This document shows positions 40,728 through 56,257 of a stretch of DNA of 64,000 bases, piece after piece. The stretch covers positions 3,328,001-3,392,000 of the forward strand of contig OZ251518.1 in the NCBI GenBank assembly GCA_965242965.1, in the 5' to 3' direction. The translations under genes were made by a program, and so were the position numbers. Position 1 is the stretch's first letter; every line of letters begins with the position of its first letter. This stretch comes from Candidatus Poribacteria bacterium. Lineage in GTDB: Bacteria > Poribacteria > WGA-4E > WGA-3G. The notes under the pieces were generated by a model, which saw only the letters and a program-made list of their open reading frames with translations, searched no databases and was not told the DNA's origin.

Positions 40728-42890
40728 ATGTTCATGCACAGAAACGCTGAACGAACACATCGCGAAATACGAAATATTGGGATTGCGGCGCATATCGATG
40801 CAGGTAAGACGACGACAACCGAACGGATTCTCTTCTATACCGGCAAAAAGCATAAAATCGGCGCGGTTGATGACGGCACCGCCGAAATGGATTGGATGGT
40901 GCAAGAACGCGAGCGCGGCGTGACAATCACCGCCGCCGCAACAACCTGCTTCTGGAAGGACTGCGCCATTCACCTCATTGATACACCCGGGCACGTCGAT
41001 TTTACGGTGGAGGTTGAACGTTCGCTGCGCGTGCTAGACGGTGCCATCGCGCTCTTCTGTGCTGTCGGCGGCGTGGAACCGCAGTCCGAGACAGTCTGGC
41101 ATCAGGCGGAACGCTACGGGGTACCGCGCATTGCCTTCGTCAATAAGATGGACAGAGTCGGCGCGAATTTTACGCGCACCATTGAGATGATGAAGGAACG
41201 CCTCGATGCAAATCCGCTGCCGCTTCAGCTGCCTATCGGTGAGGGCAACGAATTTACCGGTATCATTGAACTCCTCACACAGCGGGCACTTTATTGGAAC
41301 GCGTCAGATTTAGGGCAAACCTATCGTGAATCCGACATCCCCGCTGAATTTCATGCCGAAGTCAGTCTGGCAAGGGAAACCCTCTTTGAAACCGTCGCCG
41401 CTGAAGATGACGCGCTCCTCGAAAAATACTTAGCCGACGAAGAATTAACGCCTGCCGAATTGCTCCCTGTCATCCGCGAAGCGACGCTGAAGGGAACGTT
41501 AGTGCCGGTGCTGTGCGGCAGCTCTTTGAAGAACATCGGCGTTCAACCCTTGCTGGATGCAGTCGTCAATTTTCTGCCATCGCCTGTCGACGTGCCTCCC
41601 ATTCAAGGGATAATACCTGATAACCTATCGAAAAAAAATAGTCCACAAAACGTAGGCATCAACAACGTCAATGACAGTCCCGATAAGCCAACCTTCACCT
41701 CACCGGAGATGCACGCCGAACGCATTGCGAACGACGAAGAACCTTTTTCGGCACTCGCCTTTAAAGTCGCCAGTCATCCCACCGTCGATAAATTGGTATA
41801 TTGCCGCGTCTATTCCGGCACGCTCAAACGCGGCGATGTCGTCTTGAACGTCGGCACCGGAAAACGGGAACGGGTGAATCGCATTCTTCAGATGCACGCG
41901 AATAAAGAGGCGGTATGCGATGCCGCCTATGCCGGTGACATCGTCGCCCTGGTCGGACTGAAACAGACAAAAACGGGGGATACGTTGACGGCACCGGGGC
42001 ATCCTATCTTGCTCGCGCCCATCGATTTTCCACCCCCTGTCATCTCCATTGCGATTGAACCGGAACGCGCTAGCGATACAGACGCGTTGGAGGCAACTCT
42101 CCAAAAATTGATGGACGAAGATCCGACGTTTACCGTCAGTATGGATAAGGAAACAGGACAGCGCATCATTTCAGGGATGGGAGAACTCCACTTAGAGGTG
42201 CTTACAGATAGAATGATTCGCGAATTTGGCGTGAACGCACGGGTGAGCAAGTTGCAAGTGGCGTATCGTGAAACCATCGGCACTTCGGCGGCGGCGCGCG
42301 GCACACATATCCATAAGACAGACGAGGAGGGCATCTATGGCGATGTCACCCTCACCGTTGAACCACTCGCTCGCGGCGAAGGATTTCAGTTTGCGGATAG
42401 CACCGACGAAACACAGATTCCGCGTCCCTACATTCCATCTATCCAGAACGCGCTGCATCGCGCGCTGGGGACAGGCGCGCTCATCGGTGCCCCGTTGCAG
42501 GATGTCAAGGTGACGCTCACCGGCGGTTCCACGCACCCGACAGATGCATCGGAGACAGGGTATGGAGCCGCCGCTGTCCTCGCCTTTGAAAACGCGGTGA
42601 GAAAGGCGGAACCGCTGCTCCTTGAACCGATGATGCAGATACACGTCACCGTGCCGGATGAGCACGTTGGAAAGGTTATCGGCGATTTGAATGCGCGCCG
42701 CGCGCAAATTCATGAAAGCGGCAGCCCGCGCGAGCATATCTCCTCTATCAACGCGCTCATTCCGTTGGCAGAAACGTTCCAGTATACAACGTCGCTGCGT
42801 TCAATGACGCAGGGCCGCGGCACGTTTACGTTGGAGTTCTCGCATTACGATGTCGTGCCAAAATCTTTGATGCCGGGGCATCGCGTTTAA
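40728..42890 (+). CDS. fusA: Elongation factor G (divergent, orphan paralog)
   Basis: [46 protein letters not shown]. Confidence 0.92.
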
Positions 42891-44048: not shown

Positions 44049-44210
44049 GAGGGTGTTTTATATCTCGATGGCTTCCCGGTAGGAGGGACATCCTTGTCCC
44101 GATACGGTGGGGCATCGAGACCGGGAGGTCTCTCCTACCGACACCTCCCTTTTTTGACCCTATCGCGGGGGCCTGTCACCGCGACGTTGAGCGATTTATG
44201 AAACACCCTC
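44049..44210. mobile_element. TIR/REP MITE-like element (162 bp)
   Basis: Both TIRs; 8-bp TSD TTTTAACT/TTTTAGCT. Confidence 0.85.
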
Positions 44211-44735
44211 TTTTAGCTGCTCCCGATAAATGGCACGGATGTGATTAAAGAGCTCAATATAGGTTTGCGAGCGGTAATCCGGATATGTCCACTCCCACGG
44301 TTGGAACGTTTTTCGATAGAAACGGAGTGTAATTTCGGCATAGATACCCTCGCCGAGATAAATGCGGTGCGCGTGGTCCTTCGTAGAAGCGAGGACGAGT
44401 TTCGCCGCGTCAACATACCCGGCATCCAAATTGATGCGCCGAGGATGTGTCTCCGCGCGCGCAAACGTCTCTTCAACTTCGTTCGTGAACACCTTCATCG
44501 CCGCCAAAGCCCCGGCATCCATCAGCCGCTCAAAACTGATGAACTGCCGTTGCAGGTTCGGCCCCATCTCTGCTGTGTAGTAGGTAGTGCTGGTGAAGGG
44601 CAACAGCGCGCTCTGCCAGTCAATCGGCCCGAGGCGGCACGTTAACGTCTGATAGACAGACGACAGCAGCGGCGGCGATGCTGTCAGCACACCGATAATA
44701 GGTTTGACAGGGAGTGGTTCCCGAATGGTGCCCAT
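44196..44735 (-). CDS. DUF4416 family protein
   Basis: YYTAEMG, RRINLDAGY, LASTKDHAHRIYLGEGIYAE, WTYPDY. Confidence 0.85.
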   Translation of the reverse strand: MGTIREPLPVKPIIGVLTASPPLLSSVYQTLTCRLGPIDWQSALLPFTSTTYYTAEMGPNLQRQFISFERLMDAGALAAMKVFTNEVEETFARAETHPRRINLDAGYVDAAKLVLASTKDHAHRIYLGEGIYAEITLRFYRKTFQPWEWTYPDYRSQTYIELFNHIRAIYREQLKEGVS

Positions 44736-44872
44736 TTCTGTCTCCTCCGCGATAATTTGCACCGAATTGCTGTTAATGATACCATTTTTTTCGTTAAAAA
44801 TCAAAATTTTTCTATTTTTAAGCGAATTTTGTAAAAAAATCTGCAAAAAAGGCGTTTTTTTGCAGATTTAAT

Positions 44873-44901
44873 TTGACTTTTTATCTTTTTTAAGGTATAA
44901 T
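44873..44901 (+). promoter_or_regulatory. Dedicated rpoBC promoter
   Basis: TTGACT-17-TATAAT. Confidence 0.75.
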
Positions 44902-45072
44902 TTTACGTTATGCGATGCTTGCATAAAATTGAGACTGAACCCGGCAAGTTTTTTGTCGTAGAAATTGTTGTTTGTTTTCGGCCCGTTTAGAAACACACTA
45001 AAAATCACTACGCCTCCTTTTCTGGCAGGTGTCTGTGCCCGCCTTCGCGCACCGGACAGGAGAAGAATCTAC

Positions 45073-48000
45073 GTGAAAACACGCAAAACTTTCGCCAAAA
45101 CAGACGTTCGCACCCCTTTACCGAATTTGATTGAGACGCAGCAGCGTGCCTACGATGCCTTTTTGCAGCGTGAGACGTTCCCGCGCCAAGACAGCGGCCT
45201 GGAGGCAGTCTTCCGAGAAGTCTTTCCTATCACTGACTTCAACGAAGTCTCGCGCCTCGAATTCGTCCACTACCAGCTTGGCGAACCGAAATGGACGCTT
45301 GACGAATGCCTCGCCCGCGGTGTCACTTACCAGGTATCCCTCACCGCGCGTCTCCGCCTCGTCGTTTGTGAGAAAAACGCGGCGGACGAAGAACCGCACG
45401 TCGTCGATATCCGCGAGTCCGATGTCTTTCTCGGCGAAGTCCCGCTGATGACAGAAAACGCCAGCTTCATCATCAACGGCAGCGAACGCGTCATCGTGAA
45501 CCAGCTGCACCGCTCACCCGGTGTCATCTTCCTTGAGAAGAAACTTCCGAGCGGACACCGCTCACCCACGGCGCAAATCATCCCTTACCGCGGGGCATGG
45601 ATAGAATTTGAATCGGACTCTAAAGATACGCTTTACGTCCGGTTAAACAAACGTCGAAAGATACCTGCCACCGTCTTCATCCGCGCACTCGGATGGCAGA
45701 CGGATGCAGACATATTGAAACTGTTCGCTGAACCGACGCGCATGATGCTCTCGGGGTGGCGCGTCACAAAAGTGATACTCCCCGAATGCCCACGCCAAAT
45801 CGGTGAACTTTTAACCGCGAAGGAACATCGAGAGTTGGATGACGACTACCCGGGCATGGAAGCTGAAAAACTCTACGAAGTCGTCTCCGTTCCTGACGAT
45901 GCCGAATGCCCTGTTGCTGTCGGCCAGAGGCTCACGGAAACTGAATGGAAGTCCCGCAAAACGCGAAAAGACATCACCTTTGAACGCGTCTGGCGTATCA
46001 CCAAGCATTACCGGCACGACATCCCTTACGCCATCGGCGACATCGTTTCCGATGCAGATTATCGGAAGGCACGGAAGGATTACCCCGGTATTGAGGTAGA
46101 ACCGCACTATCGCGTCACGGCTGTCACAGACAAAGGGTGCCCGCTGGAAGAAGGACAGATGCTGACACTCAGGCAGCGCGCCAGCGAACGTCGGAAGTGG
46201 AAAGGGTTCACCACCGAACGACTCCTACGCATCACGAATATTCTCAATACCGGATGCCCCTTGAATGTCGGCCAGCACCTCTCGTCTACTGAATACACCG
46301 AAATGCTCGGCAGGTATTCTGACGCTTTCAAGGCAGTCGAGATTGAACCGACAGACATCAACGAAACCATTGGTAGTGTCTGCGCTGAACCTATCGCCGA
46401 CCCGAGGACTGACGAACAGTTGGTGACAGCGAATACGCTCCTCACCGAAGCAGAAGTCACACGGCTGCGGGATGCCGGCGTGGAGACGCTCACGGTGTTG
46501 ACACCCGAATCCGCCAAAGCTCTCCGCTTTTTACGGAATACCCTCGAACGCGACAAAGAGGCGGACTACGAGGAGGACATCCGTGCTCGCGGACGGCAGA
46601 GCGAAACGCCAATTCAGGATGTCGCCCTGCTCAAAATCCACTCTGTCCTCAGACCGGGGGAACCTGCTAGTATTGAGGCAGCGCGCCGGCAACTTGAATG
46701 GCACTTCTTCGACGCACCCCGTTATGACTTGGGGACTGTTGGACGCTACAAAGTGAACCAAAAACTGGGACACCTCTCCATATACGGTGAACAGCCCGAT
46801 GAGAAACAGCGCACGTTGCGTCCAGAGGACATCGCGGCGACACTCCGGCATCTGATTGATGTCCAAAATGATCCTGCGTTAACAGACGACTTGGATCATC
46901 TCAGTAATCGTCGTGTGCGCGGCATCGGCGAATTATTGGAGAACCAGTTCCGCATCGGCTTATTCCAGATGCGGCGTGCCACGCGTGAACGCATCTCCTC
47001 CGCCGATATGAGCAACTGTATGCCGCCAATGCTGATTAATCCGAAGCCGCTCATGGTATCGCTGCGCGAGTTCTTCGGTTCAAACCAACTCTCGCAGTTT
47101 ATGCAGCAGGTAAACCCGCTGGACGAATTGACGCACAAGCGGCGCATTTCCGCCATCGGCCCCGGTGGTTTATCGCGCGATAGAGCCACCGCTGCCGTTC
47201 GCGATGTGCATCACACGCACTACGGACGTGTCTGTCCGTTGGAAACACCTGAAGGCCCCTCTATCGGCCTCCTCGTCTCACTTGCGTGTTATGCGCGTAT
47301 CAATCCTTACGGTTTCATTGAGACACCGTACCGCAGAGTGGTGCCCGGCAAGTCTATGGTTGAAACGCAAATTGAATACCTCACCGCCGATAAGGAAGAC
47401 AGAGCCCACATCGCCGCCAAAACCATCCCTCGCGAGATGACACCGGGCGCGAAGCTGGACACGGGTATCCAGCTGCCTGTCCGAAAAGGCGAAGAGGTGC
47501 TGTCCTTGCCCCTGTCCGAGGTAGACTACGTCGGCATCTCGCCATCGCAGATTGTCGGCGTATCCGCGGCTCTCGTGCCCTTTTTAGAGCATGAAGACGC
47601 GAACCGCGCGCTCATGGGCGCGAACCACCAGCGACAAGCCGTGCCGCTTATCACGCCGGAAGCACCGCTCGTCGGCACCGGCATGGAGGCACGCGTCGCA
47701 CAGGACTCAGGGGCATTGTGCATCGCGAAGCGGAGCGGCACCGTCGAAAGCGTCTCCGCCGAAGATATCATCATCCATACCGATGAAACACTTCACGCAG
47801 ATGTCAGTGAACAACACAAGAGTGAGATGGGGTACGACCGGTACGAACTCCACACCTTCAAACGGAGCAACAACGGCACGTGCATCCATCAGCGGCCCAT
47901 CGTCTCTGTCGGCGATAAAGTGGCAGCCGGTGATGTCGTCGCCGATGGGACTTCTACCGATGAAGGCGAACTCGCACTCGGCAGGAACGTTCTCTGCGCC

Positions 48001-49599
48001 TATATGCCGTGGGGCGGACACAACTATGAGGACTCTATCCTCATCAGCGACAGGCTCGTCCAAGATGCCACCTTCAGCTCGATTCATATTGAGGAATTTG
48101 AGGTAGAGGCGCGGGAAACGAAAATGGGACCGGAGGAAATTACGCGCGATATTCCGGATGTTGGTCAACAGCGACTCGCGCAACTCGACGAAGAAGGAAT
48201 CATCCGCGTCGGAAGCCTTGTCAGCGCAGGGAGCATCCTCGTCGGCAAAATTTCACCCAAAGGCGAGAGTGAATACGGACCGGAGGAGAAACTCCTGCAC
48301 ACTATCTTCGGTGAAAAGGTGCGCGAAGTCCGAGACGCATCCGCCTATGTCAAACCGGGCATTGAAGGTGTCGTGATTGATGTCAAAGTCTTCTCACGAA
48401 AACAAGAACCAAGCCGACACTCGCTGCAAAGCTTCGCTGACGCAGACCAGCTCCGTTACGATGCTAAGAAGAAGGAGATAGAGGAGAAGTTCCACGAACA
48501 TCTCCAGGCTATCCGCCGCCGCCGAGACGAAGAAATTCGGAACGCTCTCATCGACTGCGAATTGGCACAGCCGATTTTTAGAGGGGCCACCCCTGAAGCA
48601 ACCGTCGGGCGCGCAGACGAGTTGGACGAGATCGGGGCAGTCCTGGCAGAGAGCGGCGACACCGTGACACACGAACTCCTGCACACACCCGGCGTTGCGC
48701 TCAACGAGATTTACGTCGTTGAATCAAACGTCATGGCATACATCCAGCGCGTTCAAGAAATCGCCGATGAGCGCATCGCCGCCTATACCGAAGAAAAATC
48801 AAGTTCGCTCGAACGGATGGAACTCGGTGACGAACTGAAACCCGGCGTGCTTAAACTGGTGAAAGTCTTTGTCGCAACGACGCGCCATATCTCCATCGGC
48901 GATAAGATGGCGGGCCGCTATGGCAACAAAGGCGTGGTAGCAGAGATTCTGCCCAAAGAGGATATGCCGTATCTCCCCGATGGAACGCCTGTGGACATCG
49001 TGCTGAACCCCCTCGGCGTGCCATCCCGCATGAACGTCGGGCAAATTCTTGAGATTCACCTCGGCTGGGCGTGCCATGCATTGGGCATCCATGTTGAGTC
49101 GCCTGTCTTTGATGGCGCGACAGAGGACGAAATCTTCGAGATGCTCGCCAAGACAGATTTGCCGGAACGCAGCAAGGAGACAGGAAAAAGCATCCTTTAC
49201 GATGGCAGAACCGGGGAAGCGTTCGGACAGGAAGTCACCGTGGGCCATGTCTACTTCCTCAAACTGAACCATCTCGTCGCCGACAAAATGCACGCCCGTT
49301 CTACCGGCCCCTACTCGCTTGTGACGCAGCAGCCGTTGGGCGGCAAGGCGCAACACGGCGGACAGCGGCTCGGCGAGATGGAGGTGTGGGCATTAGAGGC
49401 ATACGGTGCCGCGCACACCTTACAAGAGATGCTCACGCTCAAATCCGATGATTTCATGGGCAGAGCCAAAATTTATGAGTCGGTAGTGAAGGGGCTCAAC
49501 CCCGAATCCCCCGGCACACCCGAGTCTTTCAACGTTCTCGTGCGCGAACTGCAGGGCCTCGGGCTCAGCGTTTCCCTGAATCCGCCTGAAGAAGAATAG
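45073..49599 (+). CDS. rpoB: RNA polymerase beta subunit (~1508 aa) with repeat insertion
   Basis: FIINGSERV, DDLDHLSNRRVR, THKRR, ETPEG, GDKMAGR, HARSTGPY, GQRLGEME; GTG start after AGGAG. Confidence 0.97.
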   Translation: MKTRKTFAKTDVRTPLPNLIETQQRAYDAFLQRETFPRQDSGLEAVFREVFPITDFNEVSRLEFVHYQLGEPKWTLDECLARGVTYQVSLTARLRLVVCEKNAADEEPHVVDIRESDVFLGEVPLMTENASFIINGSERVIVNQLHRSPGVIFLEKKLPSGHRSPTAQIIPYRGAWIEFESDSKDTLYVRLNKRRKIPATVFIRALGWQTDADILKLFAEPTRMMLSGWRVTKVILPECPRQIGELLTAKEHRELDDDYPGMEAEKLYEVVSVPDDAECPVAVGQRLTETEWKSRKTRKDITFERVWRITKHYRHDIPYAIGDIVSDADYRKARKDYPGIEVEPHYRVTAVTDKGCPLEEGQMLTLRQRASERRKWKGFTTERLLRITNILNTGCPLNVGQHLSSTEYTEMLGRYSDAFKAVEIEPTDINETIGSVCAEPIADPRTDEQLVTANTLLTEAEVTRLRDAGVETLTVLTPESAKALRFLRNTLERDKEADYEEDIRARGRQSETPIQDVALLKIHSVLRPGEPASIEAARRQLEWHFFDAPRYDLGTVGRYKVNQKLGHLSIYGEQPDEKQRTLRPEDIAATLRHLIDVQNDPALTDDLDHLSNRRVRGIGELLENQFRIGLFQMRRATRERISSADMSNCMPPMLINPKPLMVSLREFFGSNQLSQFMQQVNPLDELTHKRRISAIGPGGLSRDRATAAVRDVHHTHYGRVCPLETPEGPSIGLLVSLACYARINPYGFIETPYRRVVPGKSMVETQIEYLTADKEDRAHIAAKTIPREMTPGAKLDTGIQLPVRKGEEVLSLPLSEVDYVGISPSQIVGVSAALVPFLEHEDANRALMGANHQRQAVPLITPEAPLVGTGMEARVAQDSGALCIAKRSGTVESVSAEDIIIHTDETLHADVSEQHKSEMGYDRYELHTFKRSNNGTCIHQRPIVSVGDKVAAGDVVADGTSTDEGELALGRNVLCAYMPWGGHNYEDSILISDRLVQDATFSSIHIEEFEVEARETKMGPEEITRDIPDVGQQRLAQLDEEGIIRVGSLVSAGSILVGKISPKGESEYGPEEKLLHTIFGEKVREVRDASAYVKPGIEGVVIDVKVFSRKQEPSRHSLQSFADADQLRYDAKKKEIEEKFHEHLQAIRRRRDEEIRNALIDCELAQPIFRGATPEATVGRADELDEIGAVLAESGDTVTHELLHTPGVALNEIYVVESNVMAYIQRVQEIADERIAAYTEEKSSSLERMELGDELKPGVLKLVKVFVATTRHISIGDKMAGRYGNKGVVAEILPKEDMPYLPDGTPVDIVLNPLGVPSRMNVGQILEIHLGWACHALGIHVESPVFDGATEDEIFEMLAKTDLPERSKETGKSILYDGRTGEAFGQEVTVGHVYFLKLNHLVADKMHARSTGPYSLVTQQPLGGKAQHGGQRLGEMEVWALEAYGAAHTLQEMLTLKSDDFMGRAKIYESVVKGLNPESPGTPESFNVLVRELQGLGLSVSLNPPEEE

Positions 49600-49696
49600 C
49601 ATCCTTAGCCACGGCACATAGGGTGAGGGCGAGGGCCTGTCCCTCGCCGTGCCGCGGGTTAAGCACACATCCGAATCCATAGGAGAAAAATCCACA

Positions 49697-52600
49697 ATGG
49701 CAACCCCATTTGACAGTATCTCCCTCAAAATCGCTTCGCCGGAGGAAATCAAAGAGTTGGCGAAGCGCACCTGCTGCAAACGCAGAAGCAGCACCGTCGG
49801 CCACGGCGAACCCTTCATCTGCCCAGAAATGCACACCTGCAACTGCGGCGAGGTAAAGAAGGCCGAGACGATTAACTACCGCTCCTTCCGTCCCGAACTC
49901 GAGGGCCTCTTCTGTGAGGCAATTTTCGGGCCGTCCAAAGACTGGGAGTGTAACTGCGGCAAATATAAACGGATTAAGCACAAAGGTGTTATCTGCGACC
50001 GGTGCGGCGTGGAAGTCACGCGCCAGCACGTCCGCAGGGAACGGATGGGCTACATCCAACTCGCATCCCCTGTCTCGCATATCTGGTTCTTCAAGGGTGT
50101 CCCATCGCGCATCGGCGCGTTCTGCGAACTCTCCGCACGGCAGATTGAGAACATCCTCTATTTTGATGCGTTCATGGTGACTGAAGCCGACGAGGAACTT
50201 CAAGAACAAGGCATCATGAAGCCGAACCAACTCATCAGCGAGGCAGAATTCGACCGCTACAAACGCGAATACCGCGGCCGATTTAAGGCAGGTGCCGGTG
50301 GCCAGATACTTGCCAAACGCCTCGCGAGCCTGGACTTGGAAGCAGAGTGCGCGAAAATTGTCAAGGAACTCGAGGAAACGCGCAGCCATCAGAAAAAGGT
50401 GAAACTCACCAAGCAACTCCGACTGATGGAAGACTTTATCAGTTCCGGACAGCGGCCCGAATGGATGATTCTGGATGTGCTGCCTGTCATCCCGCCGGAT
50501 TTGCGTCCCCTCGTCACCTTAGATGGCGGCCGGTTCGCCACCAGCGATTTGAACGATTTGTACCGGCGGCTCATCCATCGGAATAATCGCCTCGCTAAAC
50601 TCATCAAGATGCGCTCTCCCGAAGTCATCTTGCGCAACGAGAAACGGATGCTGCAAGAAGCCGTTGACGCATTCTTTGATAACGGCCGGCACGGCAGACG
50701 CGTGACAGGGCCCGGCAATCGCGAACTCAAATCCCTCTCGCACGTTCTCAAAGGGAAAGTCGGACGGTTCCGTCAGAACCTGCTCGGCAAACGCGTTGAC
50801 TACTCCGGCCGCAGCGTCATCGTCGTCGGCCCGGAACTGGGGATACACCAGTGCGGCATTCCAAAACAGATGGCGGTGGAGTTGTTCAAGCCGTTTATCA
50901 TTGAACGGCTGCAAGCGCATGGCTACAGCGGCACTATCAAACGCGCTAAGGCTTATGTCGAACATATTGACTCTAACAGCCCCGTGTGGGAAGTCTTGGA
51001 AGAAGTCATCGAAGAACATCCGGTGTTGCTCAACCGGCCACCGACACTGCACCGGCTCGGTATTCAGGCGTTCATGCCTGTGTTGGTAGAAGGAAAATCT
51101 ATCAGAATTCCGCCACTTGTCTGTAAAGCGTTTAACGCCGATTTTGATGGAGACCAGATGGCGGTGCATGTGCCGTTAACCGCTGAGGCACAGGCAGAAG
51201 CGAAACTGCTGATGCTCAGCAGCCATAACATCTTGAAGCCATCGCACGGTGGCCCGATTGCCGTTCCCGAACTGGATATGGTGCTTGGGCCGAGTTACCT
51301 GACGAAGACGCTGCCAGAGCACGATGCAGACGCGCAGCTGCTCCACAAGGTTTATACCACCCAAAACGGCGATGCAACGTTACTCGATGAGATTCGCAGG
51401 AAGCCGTGGTATCACCGCCGCTATGCGCATATGGAGGAAGTCATCGCCGCACACGGTGCCGGGCAGCTCAAACTGCACGACAGCGTCCAACTGTTTTTTC
51501 CGGAAAACGGCGCGCCGCGCGAACCGATTCTCACCACCGTCGGCCGAGTGATTTTTAACGAAGTGCTGCCAGCCGAATTGAAGTGGGTGGACGCGCACTC
51601 TGGACAGCGACTTCCGTTTTTCAATGGGGAAGCAGGTGGGAGGCAGCTCTCGGCAATCGTTGAAACCTGTTTCAACACTCCCGAACTCGGCACGCGGGGG
51701 ACTGTAGCACTGCTGGAGAAACTTCAAAAACTCGCGTTTGAATATGCAACGTTGAGCGGCATTTCGCCCGGCATTATTGATTATATCACACCTTCGCAGC
51801 GGGAAGGACTGTTGGCGAAGACAGAGGCAGCTATTGCCAAACTCCGCGCCGCCGCCGCCGCAGATGCCGATACGGAAGAACTCGAGAACCAGCAAATCCA
51901 CTTGTGGTACCAAGCACTGCGAGAGATGGAAAACATCATGTTTTCCAGACTCCCGGAATTGGAAACCCAACTCGTTGAACGGGGTGAAGATGTCAAAGGG
52001 TTCAGTCCGGTGCATATCATGGCGGATAGTGGGGCGCGGGCGCGGAAAAATCCGTTCATGCAAATCAGTGCCGTTATCGGGCTGAAGGCGAAGCAGAGCG
52101 GCGAAATTCTGCTACCACCGATTACCACCTCCTATCGCGACGGGTTAGACGTGATTGACTACTTCAACTCCACCTACGGTTCCCGAAAAGGCTTGGTGGA
52201 TACGGCAATGAAGACAGCGGCATCGGGTTACCTGACGCGGAAACTCGTTGATGTCGCGCAAGACGTGCGCGTCACCGAAGCGGATTGCGGCACGGTCAAC
52301 GGCATCAAAAAATTTGCCACGGAAGGCGGCGAACTCGCTTTTAAAATCAACGGACGCACCGCGACAGAGGATATCCTACATCCCAATACCGGTGAAGTGC
52401 TTGTCAAAGCGGATGAACTCATTTCAGCCGAAGCAGCGGCACTGATTGAAAAGAGTGAGATAAAAAGCGTCAACGTCCGTTCCGTGCTCACCTGCGCAAC
52501 CGAAGACGGTGTCTGCGCCAAATGCTACGGACACGATTTGACGACGAACATGCTTGTCAGTGTCGGTGAAGCTGTAGGTATCATTGCCGCGCAATCCATT

Positions 52601-55600
52601 GGCGAACCCGGCACGCAGCTCACGATGCGGACATTCCACACTGGGGGTGCAGTGGAGGAAGTCTCCGATGCACGCCAGCGTCAAATCCGAGCAAAAGCGA
52701 GTGGCACTGTGAGGTTCCGGGATTTCCATCCCGGCATCACTGTCCACCAAGAGGGCACTCTCTGGATATCCACAGGGCCGGGTAATGCCCCGCTAGGAAA
52801 TCCCCCGAGTGCCAGCGCGGATGCGGAAGATGAAACGCAACGAAAGACCGGGAACCGAGCGAATTTGGACGCGCCTACCTACAAAGTCACGCGCGTCATT
52901 CACGCCGATTGCAAATTACGGAAAGACGAATTGCTCAACGAAAAGCAGTATTCCGAAAACGCGCAGCGTTACAAAGGCTTTGAGACAGTTCCATGGCAGC
53001 ACCGCGTCACCGCTGTTCACGATGATGCCTGTCCCGTGAAAGAGGGCGACAGACTTTCCGCCGCGCAGTGGCGGGAAGCCATAAGTGCATACGGCTTCCC
53101 GCGCTTTGCAACCGAGAAGCGCGAGATAACACACGTCCGCCTATCTACTGTGAACGTTCAACCCGACGATGTGCTCACCGAAGAAGAAATTGAGCAGCGC
53201 GAAGCGGAAATTCGGAACCGATTTGACGGCGAATGGTGCTACCGTATCCCCAAAACCGGCGAGATTTTCAAGTCGGCTCAAGACTTTTTGCCCGGCTTGG
53301 GCATCCCTGTGGAGCCCCTTGAAGATATTGAGGATACAGAAATGCTAGGCGACACGTCAGCTGAAACGGCGGAAGACCTGGCTTCTGCGGAAACATCACT
53401 AGCGAAAGACACCTCTTTTGAACGCGTCTACCGCATCACCGAGCGGACAGATCGGGATTTCCCGTATGCTGTCGGGGATATCGTGGCAGCGGAGGAGATT
53501 GAGCCGTGGCTCACGCCTTTTGAGGCGGCACCGAACCCTGTCTATGTTATTGATGCAAACGCGCCCTGGCATGCAGGCGAAACGTTGACACGCTACCAAT
53601 ACGAGGAAGTGTGTCGCGACTATCGGCCGTTTGAATCCGAAAAAGCGGCGGAGGTGCTGCACCACGTTACGGCAGTGCATCATCCCAAATGCCCGCTCAA
53701 ACCGGGTCAAGATTTGACAGAAGCAGATAAAAACGCTATGCTCGCTCGCTGGTCTGGGTTTGACGTTGAGAGGCTGCGGCACCGTGTAACGCACATCTAT
53801 CATCCGGGTTTTCCACACACACCGGGCTATTTGATGAGCGATGCGGAGGCGAAACGGCTGGGGAGTAAACATCCTGGCTTTGAGACAGAAACATCTCCTG
53901 TCTTTGCAGCGCAATTGGTGATATGGGAGGACGAAGAAGCGGAATCGTCTGATAAAGCGAAACCTATCAAGCCCTATTGCGTGACAGGGATTCATCACCG
54001 CGACTGCCCCCTGGAGGCCGGGGACCTTTTCACTCCCAAGGAGGTAACTGCACAACGCAGGAAATTCCCAGGGTTTGATGTTGAACGCTTCTACGTGATC
54101 CCCAGGGAAAACATCTACGAGGTAACCGAAACTAAGCGAGCCTTTACCGCAAAAGCGTTAGCGGGTTCCAAGAAGAGTTGGCGCATTACTGAAGTGCTTC
54201 ATCCGGCGTGTCAACTTGAAGTTGGCAAGATAGTTTCCGATGCCACGTATAAAAAGACTCGCAAGACCTATCCTAGCACTAATCAAGGGCAGCTCATAAC
54301 GCAGACAGCATTTGAAACATGGGGGGGATCCTTAGCAGCCACGCAAGTGTCTCCGGAGCCTGAGCAGTTTCTCCATCGGGTAACCGAAGCTAAGCCAGCC
54401 TTCACCGCAGAAGCGTCGCCGGAAGCAGAAACGTCGCGAGAATCAGACAGGACCTGGCGCGTCACCGAAGTGTTCAATACAGCATGTCCTTATGAGGTCG
54501 GACAAGAAATCTCCGATGTCGAGTATCGACGAGGCCAAGAGGAATATGGTGATACTCGCGGAGACTTCCTGACGCAGATGGAGTTGGAACACCGGAACGC
54601 CCTCACGACTCAACCTGTTCTGCAACTCTCTGAAACGGAGTTCAAGGTCCTTCGCAAAACGGATCCGACGCTCAAGGATAGGGTGATTACCTCCCGATAC
54701 CGCGTTGTGGACACCTATCACCCAGAGTTCCCCTTTAAAGTCGGCGAGGTCCTGACAGATAAAGATTACAAGCAGTGCCAGAAAGACTTCAGAGGGTTCG
54801 ATGTTGAACATTTCTACGAGGTTACCGCAGACGAACGTGAATTCGTGGAGAGCAGCCCTCAGGAAGCGGAAACCCAACTCATTTCAGACCTCACCGTAGA
54901 GGGGCCGCACTATCGGCACGACGTTGAACCCTCTCCGGTAGCGACATTTGAGAAGCCGCGTCTCAAGAAATTTTGGCGGGTTAATGCAGTCTCCAACCCA
55001 GAGTGTCCGCTGGAGGTTGGTCAAAATCTCTCCGAGGGCGAATATCTGGCGGCACGCGAGACATACAAGGTAATTACCGAAAAACAGAACCCTGATTCAC
55101 GTTTCCTTGAAGGTGATATCCTTGTCCTCTCCGAGCGGGAATACAACGCGCTCATGAAAGGCCATAGGCAAGAAGCTCCGCACACCGTTACCGCCGTGCA
55201 TCACCCAAATTGTCCACTTCAGGTTGGAGCCAAATTGAGCAAAGCGGAATACGAGGGTTTGAGTGCTCACTACCCCGGGTTTGATACCGACGAACCCGCA
55301 CTGCGGATGCATATTGAGATAGAGACTGCGGATGGACATCGGGTGCCGCATCTTATCACGGAAGGTTACTCCTTCTCCATCAAGGAGGGCGATCCCGTCA
55401 AAGTGGAAGACACTCTCGCCGAGCTCCATGAAAAGACAGCGAACATGGATATCGTCGCCGGGATTCCGCGTGTGACAGATCTCTTTGAGGCGCGCCGTCC
55501 TAAACGTGAGGACGCGGCGGAAATCGCCGAGATTGAGGGACGCATTGAGGCAGCAGGCACCAAAGCCGGTGTGCCGACATACCGTATCGTTGATGAGGAA

Positions 55601-56257
55601 CACCAGAGCCGCCTCTACGCCATTCCTGACGAAAAACGGCGCGTCACCGAAGGCGACCGGGTAAAGGCAGGACAACCGCTCACGGACGGTTACCTCAACC
55701 CGCACGATATCCTCAGCATCGGGCGCGTCTTCATTGAAGATGTGCCAATTGATGGTGATGAAGCACTCTGGACATACCTCGTTGAGGAAATCCAAAAGGT
55801 TTACGGTGCACGCGCCATCAACGACAAGCACCTCGAAGCCATCGTCCGCCAGATGACGAGGAAGGTGCGGGTGATAGCACCCGGCGATACGCAGTTTCCC
55901 CATAACAGTGAGGTGCCGCGACAGAAATTCAATGAAGTCAACGCGAAGGTTATTGCTGAAGACGGTAAACCCGCTACCGGCGAACCGATTCTGCAAGGCA
56001 TTAGCCGCGCATCGCTCAGTACCGACAGCTTCATCTCTGCCGCCTCGTTCCAGCAGACGACGAAGGTGCTGACAGATGCCGCTGTCAAAGGGCAGAAAGA
56101 CAAACTCTTCGGATTGAAGGAGAACGTCATCCTCGGTCGCCTCATCCCTGCAGGAAGTGGACTTTCGGATTTCCAGCATTTGGAAATCACGGAAGTTGAC
56201 GCTGACGAAGAGATGGAAGCACCGGAATCCGCCGAGTCATCGTCTGCGGTGCCATAA
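49697..56257 (+). CDS. rpoC: RNA polymerase beta' subunit (~2186 aa) with giant trigger-loop insertion
   Basis: Zn finger CNCGKYK...CDRCG, GRFRQNLLGKRVDYSGRSV, NADFDGD, QLTMRTFH, GLKENVILG; RBS aggag. Confidence 0.97.
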   Translation: MATPFDSISLKIASPEEIKELAKRTCCKRRSSTVGHGEPFICPEMHTCNCGEVKKAETINYRSFRPELEGLFCEAIFGPSKDWECNCGKYKRIKHKGVICDRCGVEVTRQHVRRERMGYIQLASPVSHIWFFKGVPSRIGAFCELSARQIENILYFDAFMVTEADEELQEQGIMKPNQLISEAEFDRYKREYRGRFKAGAGGQILAKRLASLDLEAECAKIVKELEETRSHQKKVKLTKQLRLMEDFISSGQRPEWMILDVLPVIPPDLRPLVTLDGGRFATSDLNDLYRRLIHRNNRLAKLIKMRSPEVILRNEKRMLQEAVDAFFDNGRHGRRVTGPGNRELKSLSHVLKGKVGRFRQNLLGKRVDYSGRSVIVVGPELGIHQCGIPKQMAVELFKPFIIERLQAHGYSGTIKRAKAYVEHIDSNSPVWEVLEEVIEEHPVLLNRPPTLHRLGIQAFMPVLVEGKSIRIPPLVCKAFNADFDGDQMAVHVPLTAEAQAEAKLLMLSSHNILKPSHGGPIAVPELDMVLGPSYLTKTLPEHDADAQLLHKVYTTQNGDATLLDEIRRKPWYHRRYAHMEEVIAAHGAGQLKLHDSVQLFFPENGAPREPILTTVGRVIFNEVLPAELKWVDAHSGQRLPFFNGEAGGRQLSAIVETCFNTPELGTRGTVALLEKLQKLAFEYATLSGISPGIIDYITPSQREGLLAKTEAAIAKLRAAAAADADTEELENQQIHLWYQALREMENIMFSRLPELETQLVERGEDVKGFSPVHIMADSGARARKNPFMQISAVIGLKAKQSGEILLPPITTSYRDGLDVIDYFNSTYGSRKGLVDTAMKTAASGYLTRKLVDVAQDVRVTEADCGTVNGIKKFATEGGELAFKINGRTATEDILHPNTGEVLVKADELISAEAAALIEKSEIKSVNVRSVLTCATEDGVCAKCYGHDLTTNMLVSVGEAVGIIAAQSIGEPGTQLTMRTFHTGGAVEEVSDARQRQIRAKASGTVRFRDFHPGITVHQEGTLWISTGPGNAPLGNPPSASADAEDETQRKTGNRANLDAPTYKVTRVIHADCKLRKDELLNEKQYSENAQRYKGFETVPWQHRVTAVHDDACPVKEGDRLSAAQWREAISAYGFPRFATEKREITHVRLSTVNVQPDDVLTEEEIEQREAEIRNRFDGEWCYRIPKTGEIFKSAQDFLPGLGIPVEPLEDIEDTEMLGDTSAETAEDLASAETSLAKDTSFERVYRITERTDRDFPYAVGDIVAAEEIEPWLTPFEAAPNPVYVIDANAPWHAGETLTRYQYEEVCRDYRPFESEKAAEVLHHVTAVHHPKCPLKPGQDLTEADKNAMLARWSGFDVERLRHRVTHIYHPGFPHTPGYLMSDAEAKRLGSKHPGFETETSPVFAAQLVIWEDEEAESSDKAKPIKPYCVTGIHHRDCPLEAGDLFTPKEVTAQRRKFPGFDVERFYVIPRENIYEVTETKRAFTAKALAGSKKSWRITEVLHPACQLEVGKIVSDATYKKTRKTYPSTNQGQLITQTAFETWGGSLAATQVSPEPEQFLHRVTEAKPAFTAEASPEAETSRESDRTWRVTEVFNTACPYEVGQEISDVEYRRGQEEYGDTRGDFLTQMELEHRNALTTQPVLQLSETEFKVLRKTDPTLKDRVITSRYRVVDTYHPEFPFKVGEVLTDKDYKQCQKDFRGFDVEHFYEVTADEREFVESSPQEAETQLISDLTVEGPHYRHDVEPSPVATFEKPRLKKFWRVNAVSNPECPLEVGQNLSEGEYLAARETYKVITEKQNPDSRFLEGDILVLSEREYNALMKGHRQEAPHTVTAVHHPNCPLQVGAKLSKAEYEGLSAHYPGFDTDEPALRMHIEIETADGHRVPHLITEGYSFSIKEGDPVKVEDTLAELHEKTANMDIVAGIPRVTDLFEARRPKREDAAEIAEIEGRIEAAGTKAGVPTYRIVDEEHQSRLYAIPDEKRRVTEGDRVKAGQPLTDGYLNPHDILSIGRVFIEDVPIDGDEALWTYLVEEIQKVYGARAINDKHLEAIVRQMTRKVRVIAPGDTQFPHNSEVPRQKFNEVNAKVIAEDGKPATGEPILQGISRASLSTDSFISAASFQQTTKVLTDAAVKGQKDKLFGLKENVILGRLIPAGSGLSDFQHLEITEVDADEEMEAPESAESSSAVP

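Follow-up and report, generated by a model that had tools for sequence, protein, structure and literature searches.

The adjacent RNA polymerase (RNAP) genes rpoB and rpoC of a Candidatus Poribacteria bacterium encode beta and beta' subunits that are both enlarged by copies of one small module. They lie in the stretch of DNA analysed here (hereafter the window; 64,000 nucleotides, positions 3,328,001 to 3,392,000 of contig OZ251518.1, assembly GCA_965242965.1). In beta, five tandem units of 39 residues occupy the insertion site beta-i4 in the lobe, and the same module makes up most of a 937-residue insertion in the beta' trigger loop, where it is present in 12 copies. Profile comparison identifies the unit as a paralogue of a native element of the beta' clamp, beta'-bD2 or ‘small left claw’ (sLC), and not of the BBM2 or SBHM domains. 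The five beta units probably represent genuine, translated copies, in tandem, of a clamp-derived mini-domain common to both subunits, with the history and the architectural role proposed below.

A motif scan of the rpoB open reading frame (ORF) places the starts of the beta units at residues 265, 304, 343, 382, and 421, i.e., at an exact 39-residue period. A preliminary description of this DNA had reported five tandem units at 45757-46335 followed by a BBM2-like peptide, and all of the peptides it quoted are found in the translation; only the end of the array is to be corrected, as the period puts the end of the fifth unit at 46341, six bases later. Pairwise identity among the units is about 20–35 %. 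Their consensus has an invariant Pro12 and Gly16, with Cys11 in most units, and the beta array as a whole is near neutral (net charge -1, pI 6.6). The unit is not covered by any Pfam or NCBIfam model in library scans of rpoB and rpoC. The array interrupts the beta2 (lobe) domain where E. coli has beta residues 225-343, the range of beta-i4 given by Opalka 2010 (PMC2939025), in agreement with the site initially proposed: in 3lti (chain range 220-355), it is E. coli beta 220 that pairs with the first residue of the structural model described below (ORF residue 250). In many units of both arrays, a single Cys, often with one or two His, is seen in the loop preceding a short strand (45757-46341; 52880-55297), and several beta' units show His-His-Pro-x-Cys-Pro in this loop.

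A hidden Markov model (HMM) of the five beta units matches rpoC with an E-value of 3.1e-84 (262.6 bits) in 14 domain rows. Twelve of these have independent E-values (i-E) of 4.5e-5 or lower and all lie between the motifs flanking the trigger loop; the other two are weak (0.21 and 0.23), and one of the weak rows is the native clamp element (rpoC residues 194-213). Iteration of the HMM converges at 17 units, five from beta and 12 from beta', unit counts being throughout those of HMM-detectable units at domain E<=1e-3. The preliminary description had named the lack of significant similarity between beta and beta' profiles as the result that would speak against a common repeat. The profile–profile comparison by hhalign yielded a probability of 99.4 % (E 3.9e-21, 38 of 39 columns), and its view that one module has colonised both subunits stands, with beta-i9 and further beta' sites to be added in relatives.

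In the window's own 5.7-Mb genome, a protein search finds the unit in seven places, all inside the rpoB and rpoC ORFs, and a profile search gives 17 matches (5 + 12), every one among the matches listed being in rpoB or rpoC. Tandem Repeats Finder detects no DNA repeat with a period of 117 between 45600 and 46500, so the duplication is old and detectable at the protein level only. A selfish DNA repeat, like in-frame palindromic elements, was considered as the present state of the array and rejected because there is no DNA repeat and the orthologous units are conserved. Chance similarity can be regarded as ruled out for practical purposes, and so can low-complexity sequence or an assembly artefact: nothing beyond the short length of the unit favours them, and against them are the E-values of 3e-84 and 4e-21, the intact rpoB and rpoC ORFs with full family scores, and the same architecture in 35 of the 36 genomes of the family, single-contig assemblies among them.

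The location of the beta' array in the trigger loop follows from two conserved flanking motifs (residues 995-1000, and 1938 onward) that are separated by 937 residues, and the Pfam Rpb1 domain 5 is split in two halves around the insertion. Its resemblance to SBHM is limited to the outer flanks, which can be aligned by eye with the SBHM pair of the sister families; residues 1886-1937 give weak, below-cut-off Pfam matches to Biotin_lipoyl (E 0.03) and to the apocytochrome f C-terminal domain (E 0.098). In the linkers between the beta' units (window 53090-55180), a second, shorter motif recurs, an aromatic residue followed by x-V-T-E and, a few residues later, by Phe and an acidic tail. It is seen again at the N-terminus of two non-RNAP proteins described below (P0012 and P0015) and may be a degenerate half-unit.

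beta'-bD2 has been described as a bacterial-specific mini-domain of 39-47 residues (CATH 3.30.60.280), with tabulated ranges that include 139-177 and 142-181 (Alvarez-Carreno et al. 2024, PMC11515920, Table 1). The native element of the window's rpoC aligns with approximately E. coli beta' 140-183, and the 39-residue unit falls within the sLC size class of about 39-47 residues. When 189 array units from 23 genomes were compared by hhalign with 19 native elements, the probability was 98.4 % (E 5.8e-15, 35 columns); the same units gave 39 % over 21 of 39 columns with canonical BBM2, and they show no similarity to the second native sLC, beta'-bD7 (probability 0.4 %). In the five sister-family genomes in which this was followed up, the profile of the 12 beta' units has exactly one genome-wide match (E 6e-8 to 1e-4), in every case in the N-terminal clamp element of an rpoC of normal size (1411-1445 residues). 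The native element of these genomes and the unit consensus have in common a hydrophobic strand, a Cys-Pro-Leu loop, an acidic helix with Tyr, and a Pro-Gly-Phe end, and among the beta units it is the fifth that scores nearest to the native element of the sister families. Against PDB sequences, the unit profile finds nothing significant, four of the top ten rows being beta' chains at the native site (E 0.15-0.5). The module first noted as shared by beta and beta' was seen correctly, and what had been overlooked is its clamp origin and its distinctness from the usual BBM2 and SBHM blocks.

An ordinary expansion of beta-i4, in which the five units are diverged BBM2 and the likeness of beta to beta' is the known sharing of BBM2, has to be weighed here. 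BBM2/BEAN domains (CATH 3.90.105.10) are folded as two antiparallel brackets, each with a helix and a pair of strands. beta-i4 has been predicted to contain one to six tandem BBM2 (Opalka 2010, PMC2939025), and six modules are reached here when the canonical BBM2 is counted with the five units; the order of elements in the unit (strand-turn-strand-helix) is BBM2-like, hhalign places the strand-helix part in register with BBM2 (E 3e-4), and a sister-family genome, G010, has three canonical BBM2 at this very site. This explanation is nevertheless unlikely in view of the 39 % probability over 21 of 39 columns, as opposed to 98.4 % for beta'-bD2. The TGD/E motif that marks the BEAN domains of RNAP beta (PMC11515920, section 2.3) is absent from the unit consensus, and the canonical BBM2 module 3' of the array carries TGE in relatives. 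The unit measures 39 residues and the canonical module of the same protein about 45-55. Structural searches point in the same direction: Foldseek with a model devoid of the canonical BBM2 finds nothing (best E 0.23), and a wide structure search contains no BEAN chain within its 50 rows.

The structure of the array was modelled with AlphaFold2 for ORF residues 250-527 (an alignment of 22 rows) and for the units alone, residues 262-462 (9 rows). The mean predicted local distance difference test scores are 85.8 and 84.6, and the predicted template modelling scores 0.53 and 0.51, respectively. A common repeat appears in both models, consisting of a 10-12-residue strand that runs across the unit junction, a loop, a 2-3-residue strand, and a 10-residue helix, so that the unit is predicted to be a strand-loop-strand-helix mini-domain. 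Since the last strand of one unit continues into the first strand of the next in the models, the array would be expected to form a stiff rod, which points to a continuous structure instead of beads on a string. The BEAN-fold matches obtained with the first model were traced to its canonical BBM2 part and therefore do not classify the units. The best matches of the wide structure search, though weak, are beta' small domains; a search of the ESM Atlas with the beta array gave no usable match.

Sixty-one genomes of the phylum were searched with the profile built from the 12 beta' units (f1-f8 and g1-g4 are working labels, f1 being the family of the window and f2 and f3 its sister families). In f1, 35 of 36 genomes contain between 5 and 17 matches, and the single miss is a 90 %-complete assembly. 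One match each is found in the f2 genomes (6/6) and in 6 of the 11 f3 genomes, and none in the seven genomes of f4-f8. The trigger-loop insertion measures about 200-216 residues in the sister families (216 in f3), 618-657 in other f1 genera, and 937 in the window. The insert of f2 and f3, as judged by eye, is an E. coli-like two-SBHM one; in f1, the outer SBHM-like strands alone remain and the interior is filled with units.

At beta-i4, units are absent from all fetched genomes of g2 (9/9) and of f2 and f3 (5/5), which have one canonical BBM2 each, except for G010 of f2, whose rpoB (L030, ORF residues ~225-437) bears three in tandem; ordinary BBM2 expansion is therefore also present in this phylum. 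Three units are found in g3 (4/4, plus L002) and five in g4 (2/2), in L001, and in the window, and they always stand immediately upstream of the canonical BBM2. Two or three further units are located at the tip of beta-i9 (SI2) in g3 and L002, where they end an insert of about 300 residues (L024:4881-6023 in rpoB of G050, g3; also L025-L027 and L002). In its upstream part, the g3 insert shows homology to the central region of P0012, a non-RNAP protein (E 1e-25 to 1e-40, 28-35 % identity); the rows for P0012 residues ~190-520 were used for this comparison, since the P0012 search of the family was swamped by TPR matches. Pfam gives nothing in the g3 beta-i9 insert at E<=0.01.

A tree of the rpoB core (1250 ungapped columns) has the form g2 + (g3 + (g1 + g4)), with a support of 1.0 for the array-bearing clade g1, g3, g4. 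The most parsimonious order of events leads from the native element to the trigger-loop array in the family ancestor, then to beta-i4 in the ancestor of g1, g3, and g4, and finally to beta-i9 in g3. It is proposed that, in the ancestor of one Poribacteria family, a duplicate of the native element entered an SI3 frame with a single SBHM and multiplied at that site, that a copy would later have reached beta-i4 in the ancestor of g1, g3, and g4, and that another would have been placed in beta-i9 in g3. Orthologous units pair one to one between genera with 44-75 % identity. In comparison with a 78 %-identical relative, the array shows a dN/dS of 0.48 and the core segments show 0.06-0.14; selection on the array is therefore purifying but relaxed, as fits a surface appendage. 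A tree of 58 units (FastTree, 39 columns) shows beta and beta' units interleaved and the last beta-i4 unit clustering with the native elements; because of the 39 columns and the lack of support values, neither this tree nor the pairwise scores were used to name a donor.

The role suggested for the arrays derives from the position of their host sites and from the known roles of SI3. In the downstream-DNA channel, beta-i4 is part of the wall formed by the lobe, and SI3 is carried by the trigger loop next to the secondary channel (PMC2939025, PMC6970531); according to literature abstracts, pausing is modulated by SI3 in E. coli, and in cyanobacteria SI3 builds an arch to sigma. By analogy, the arrays would be solvent-exposed architectural extensions of RNAP. 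In beta, the rod would extend the wall that the lobe forms along the downstream-DNA channel; in beta', SI3 would gain about 100 kDa of semi-rigid mass from the array and carry it through every folding cycle of the trigger loop. Together they could tune elongation and pausing through trigger-loop dynamics and offer docking surfaces, as SI3 of E. coli and cyanobacteria does.

It had also been suggested that the beta and beta' arrays may pack together into a lineage-specific substructure, which would bridge the lobe and the trigger-loop insertion. The underlying statement that E. coli SI1 and SI3 both lie near the downstream-DNA/secondary-channel face agrees with PMC6970531, in whose account lobe-Si1 is one wall of the downstream channel and TraR in the secondary channel contacts both lobe-Si1 and Si3. 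In addition, every genome in which a beta array was found has a beta' array as well, and the full five beta units coexist with the largest beta' array of the genomes examined (12 trigger-loop units, 937 residues). However, a beta' array without any beta array is present in 9/9 fetched g2 genomes, showing that the beta' array does not require a beta partner or packing, and unit numbers do not co-vary (three beta-i4 and 8-10 trigger-loop units in g3, five and 8-9 in g4). Packing of the two arrays is a doubtful proposition.

Several points weigh against a clamp-derived, architectural array as a whole. The native element of this genome matches the unit HMM weakly (i-E 0.21) and is itself diverged. 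The pairwise E-value of units and BBM2 is 3e-4 in the same strand-helix register, and room has to be left for a remote kinship of the two. The unit tree lacks support values. The AlphaFold2 models rest on shallow alignments (22 and 9 rows). Parsimony over 23 genomes and a tree of rpoB itself underlie the order of events, an array dN/dS of 0.48 means markedly relaxed constraint, and the mechanism is built entirely on analogy.

The module is rare. A 78-unit profile scored against 1.84 billion representative proteins gives 53 matches at E<=1e-3, of which 25 have E-values of 1e-10 or lower and 11 of 1e-30 or lower. The best 36 of the 53 were inspected: they are mostly Poribacteria-like rpoB or rpoC, or fragments of these, together with a few non-RNAP proteins and one rpoC from another lineage. 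Several repeat proteins among the best 36, which match part of the profile, are judged spurious. The rpoC from the other lineage (P0025, 2029 residues) carries about eight tandem copies of beta'-bD2 and its following helices at the native site, an independent expansion of the same parent element; a search for related loci gave generic rpoC matches only (best 40-43 % identity, Planctomycetota records), which are uninformative on the lineage.

Other observations concern the company that the unit keeps in relatives. In P0004, the 2210-residue rpoC of a close relative, one unit of the trigger-loop array encloses a domain of restriction-endonuclease fold (Pfam REase_MTES_1575, residues 1328-1421, E 1.8e-12, above the cut-off); the window's own rpoC is without this nuclease-like domain. 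The same domain (E 1.7e-17) is seen with several units at the beta'-bD7 site of P0014, a 596-residue C-terminal rpoC fragment from a relative. The rpoC of G045 (L018:7948-9630, 2383 residues) has an extra insertion of about 500 residues that precedes the trigger loop and lies within or adjacent to the beta'-bD5 region. This insertion contains seven unit matches at a spacing of about 30 residues, in which full and N-terminally shortened units alternate, and a Cys/His motif that is HNH-like by eye; there is no Pfam nuclease match in it at E<=0.01. P0012 (837 residues), P0015 (938 residues), P0022, and P0023 are non-RNAP proteins with 3-6 units each. P0012 and P0015 have short repeats at the N-terminus and then two HsdR_N-like segments (E about 1e-3 with Pfam HSDR_N_2, below the cut-off); five or six units come next, after which a hydrophobic segment, a coiled coil, and TPR repeats follow in this order. 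No non-RNAP protein with units was found in the window's own genome by protein and profile searches.

The module might instead be a domain-level mobile cassette, often accompanied by a nuclease-fold domain, that enters surface loops in frame, the arrays being tolerated passengers. The unit has indeed been found at many sites: beta-i4, beta-i9, the trigger loop, a place in or next to beta'-bD5 (L018), beta'-bD7 (P0014), and membrane TPR proteins (P0012, P0015). REase_MTES_1575 lies beside or inside units in P0014 and P0004, the central region of P0012 has a homologue in the g3 beta-i9 insert (28-35 % identity, E-values as low as 1e-40), and the relaxed dN/dS of 0.48 fits a passenger. We still hold a cassette to be improbable. 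There is no DNA-level repeat and the units share about 20-35 % identity; orthologous units retain a one-to-one correspondence between genera (44-75 % identity); the genome of the window has neither a nuclease domain nor a copy outside RNAP; the parent element is a native part of RNAP; and Pfam scans show no intein or transposase signatures. In the improbable event that cassette and packing both applied, the module, alone or with a PD-(D/E)xK-type nuclease, would be a colonist of at least five beta and beta' surface loops and of a membrane TPR family in one Poribacteria family, and a bridge of the lobe rod and the 937-residue array would couple trigger-loop folding to the lobe wall, a new mode of catalysis regulation in a bacterial RNAP.

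Lineage-specific tandem small modules are known from other polymerases; the non-conserved domain of Thermus beta', for instance, consists of five BBM2. The preferred reading, a clamp-derived unit copied into both subunits, is best appreciated against such systems. E. coli beta-i4 (SI1, beta DR1) holds two BBM2 forming one BEAN domain, and the array of the window resembles it in the insertion site and in placing tandem small alpha/beta modules on the surface of the lobe wall; one canonical BBM2 has also been kept. In contrast to E. coli, five of the six modules in the window are another unit, a 39-residue homologue of beta'-bD2 with conserved Pro and Gly, mostly a Cys before the Pro, and without TGD/E; the nearly neutral array also differs from the highly acidic solvent-exposed surface of E. 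coli beta-i4 (PMC2939025). The native beta'-bD2 agrees with the unit in its size class (39-47 residues), in clear sequence homology, and in being the sole genome-wide match in the sister families, but in the window the element has been copied out of its native place, in 5 + 12 copies at two foreign sites. Sections 2.2-2.4 of PMC11515920 describe sLC insertions for just a few rare beta' variants, at bD2, bD4, bD5, and bD7, none of them in beta or in the trigger loop.

With respect to the trigger loop, E. coli SI3 (188 residues, two SBHM) and the SI3 of the sister-family Poribacteria (about 200-216 residues) share the insertion point with the array of the window; unlike them, f1 has the interior replaced or filled by the unit array, with the outer SBHM-like strands alone left. 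A bioRxiv preprint (10.1101/2021.01.27.428476) gives 2-5 SBHMs for trigger-loop insertions. Cyanobacterial SI3 (beta'-i6, ~65 kDa) is comparable as a very large nested insertion that moves in each folding cycle (PMC10895346, PMC10120043), and both insertions appear to start from SBHM/HABAS frames. The cyanobacterial one, however, consists of nine further HABAS/SBHM domains (PMC11515920, section 2.4), whereas one SBHM-like frame carries 12 sLC-derived units here, and at 937 residues the insertion of the window exceeds cyanobacterial SI3, which was called ‘the largest by far’ in a published abstract. Type 2 beta', described in PMC11515920 with BEAN/BBM2 in beta'-bD2 (e.g., Dehalococcoides), is similar in having lineage-specific tandem modules of a family common to beta and beta', and differs in the module itself (BEAN/BBM2), in the host site, which is the clamp and not the trigger loop, and in lineage.

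As catalogued in PMC2939025 and PMC11515920, lineage-specific insertions are BBM2/BEAN in beta and SBHM/HABAS in the beta' trigger loop. The RNAP of the window departs from this scheme in three respects: a third building block, copied from a native clamp mini-domain; its presence in 5 + 12 copies in both subunits, with a third site in relatives; and a trigger-loop insertion of 937 residues. Because the insertions known from these sources are BBM2 or SBHM/HABAS, with sLC at other sites, a clamp-derived sLC array in the trigger loop and in beta would be new; no description of one was found in the literature searched, a scope that did not include the PMC11515920 supplements (Table S4, rare beta' variants), Lane & Darst 2010, and Iyer et al. 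2004. The stepwise distribution (none in the sister families; beta' only in g2; beta-i4 in addition in g1 and g4; beta-i9 in addition in g3) makes both history and function testable by comparing natural variants. As the trigger loop folds and unfolds at each nucleotide addition, such a load is a natural experiment on the mass and shapes that the catalytic cycle tolerates.

The coordinates of the genes, units, and accompanying modules are collected in Table 1.

Table 1. Features of rpoB and rpoC in the window; rpoB residues are counted throughout from position 44965 and rpoC residues from the GTG at 49649.
Feature	Positions	Strand	Residues	Remarks
rpoB ORF	44965..49599	+	1544 aa	from first TTG
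beta unit B1	45757..45873	+	265-303	i-E 5e-19 (iterated unit HMM)
beta unit B2	45874..45990	+	304-342	i-E 7e-14 (iterated unit HMM)
beta unit B3	45991..46107	+	343-381	i-E 4e-19 (iterated unit HMM)
beta unit B4	46108..46224	+	382-420	i-E 2e-18 (iterated unit HMM)
beta unit B5	46225..46341	+	421-459	i-E 2.5e-15 (iterated unit HMM)
canonical BBM2 module of beta-i4	46369..46500	+	469-512	in every Poribacteria rpoB examined
rpoC ORF	49649..56257	+	2202 aa	from GTG; directly after rpoB
native beta' clamp element (beta'-bD2, sLC), putative parent	50171..50293	+	175-215	diverged in this genome
trigger-loop (SI3 / beta'-i6) insertion	52649..55459	+	1001-1937	937 aa; SBHM-like flanks around 12 units and linkers
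beta' unit C1	52880..52996	+	1078-1116	i-E 2e-17
beta' unit C2	53000..53116	+	1118-1156	i-E 4e-14
beta' unit C3, truncated	53429..53506	+	1261-1286	i-E 5e-9, HMM positions 1-23 only
beta' unit C4	53540..53641	+	1298-1331	i-E 7.5e-14
beta' unit C5	53660..53776	+	1338-1376	i-E 1e-17
beta' unit C6	53780..53896	+	1378-1416	i-E 1e-16
beta' unit C7	53975..54091	+	1443-1481	i-E 1e-18
beta' unit C8	54179..54295	+	1511-1549	i-E 2e-16
beta' unit C9	54455..54571	+	1603-1641	i-E 5e-16
beta' unit C10	54698..54814	+	1684-1722	i-E 6e-19
beta' unit C11	54974..55090	+	1776-1814	i-E 2e-17
beta' unit C12	55181..55297	+	1845-1883	i-E 9e-18

Both subunits score as full-length equivalogs, yet they far exceed the lengths of the profiles: rpoB matches TIGR02013 (1238 positions) at 1606 bits, along with six Rpb2 Pfam domains, and rpoC matches TIGR02386 (1147 positions) at 1428.7 bits. 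The true start of rpoB is probably the GTG at 45073, giving a protein of 1508 residues; AGGAG stands 8 nt upstream of this codon, and the NCBIfam match begins at residue 38. For rpoC, the ATG at residue 17 (49697) is probably the true start, and the rpoC of the relative (P0004) starts at the equivalent Met.

In many bacteria, genes of large-subunit ribosomal proteins directly precede rpoB. No ORF for such a protein is seen immediately 5' of rpoB in the window (44196-45073); upstream of the gene lies a 216-residue ORF on the minus strand and, further upstream, at 40728-42890, a 720-residue ORF that by eye resembles a translation-elongation GTPase.

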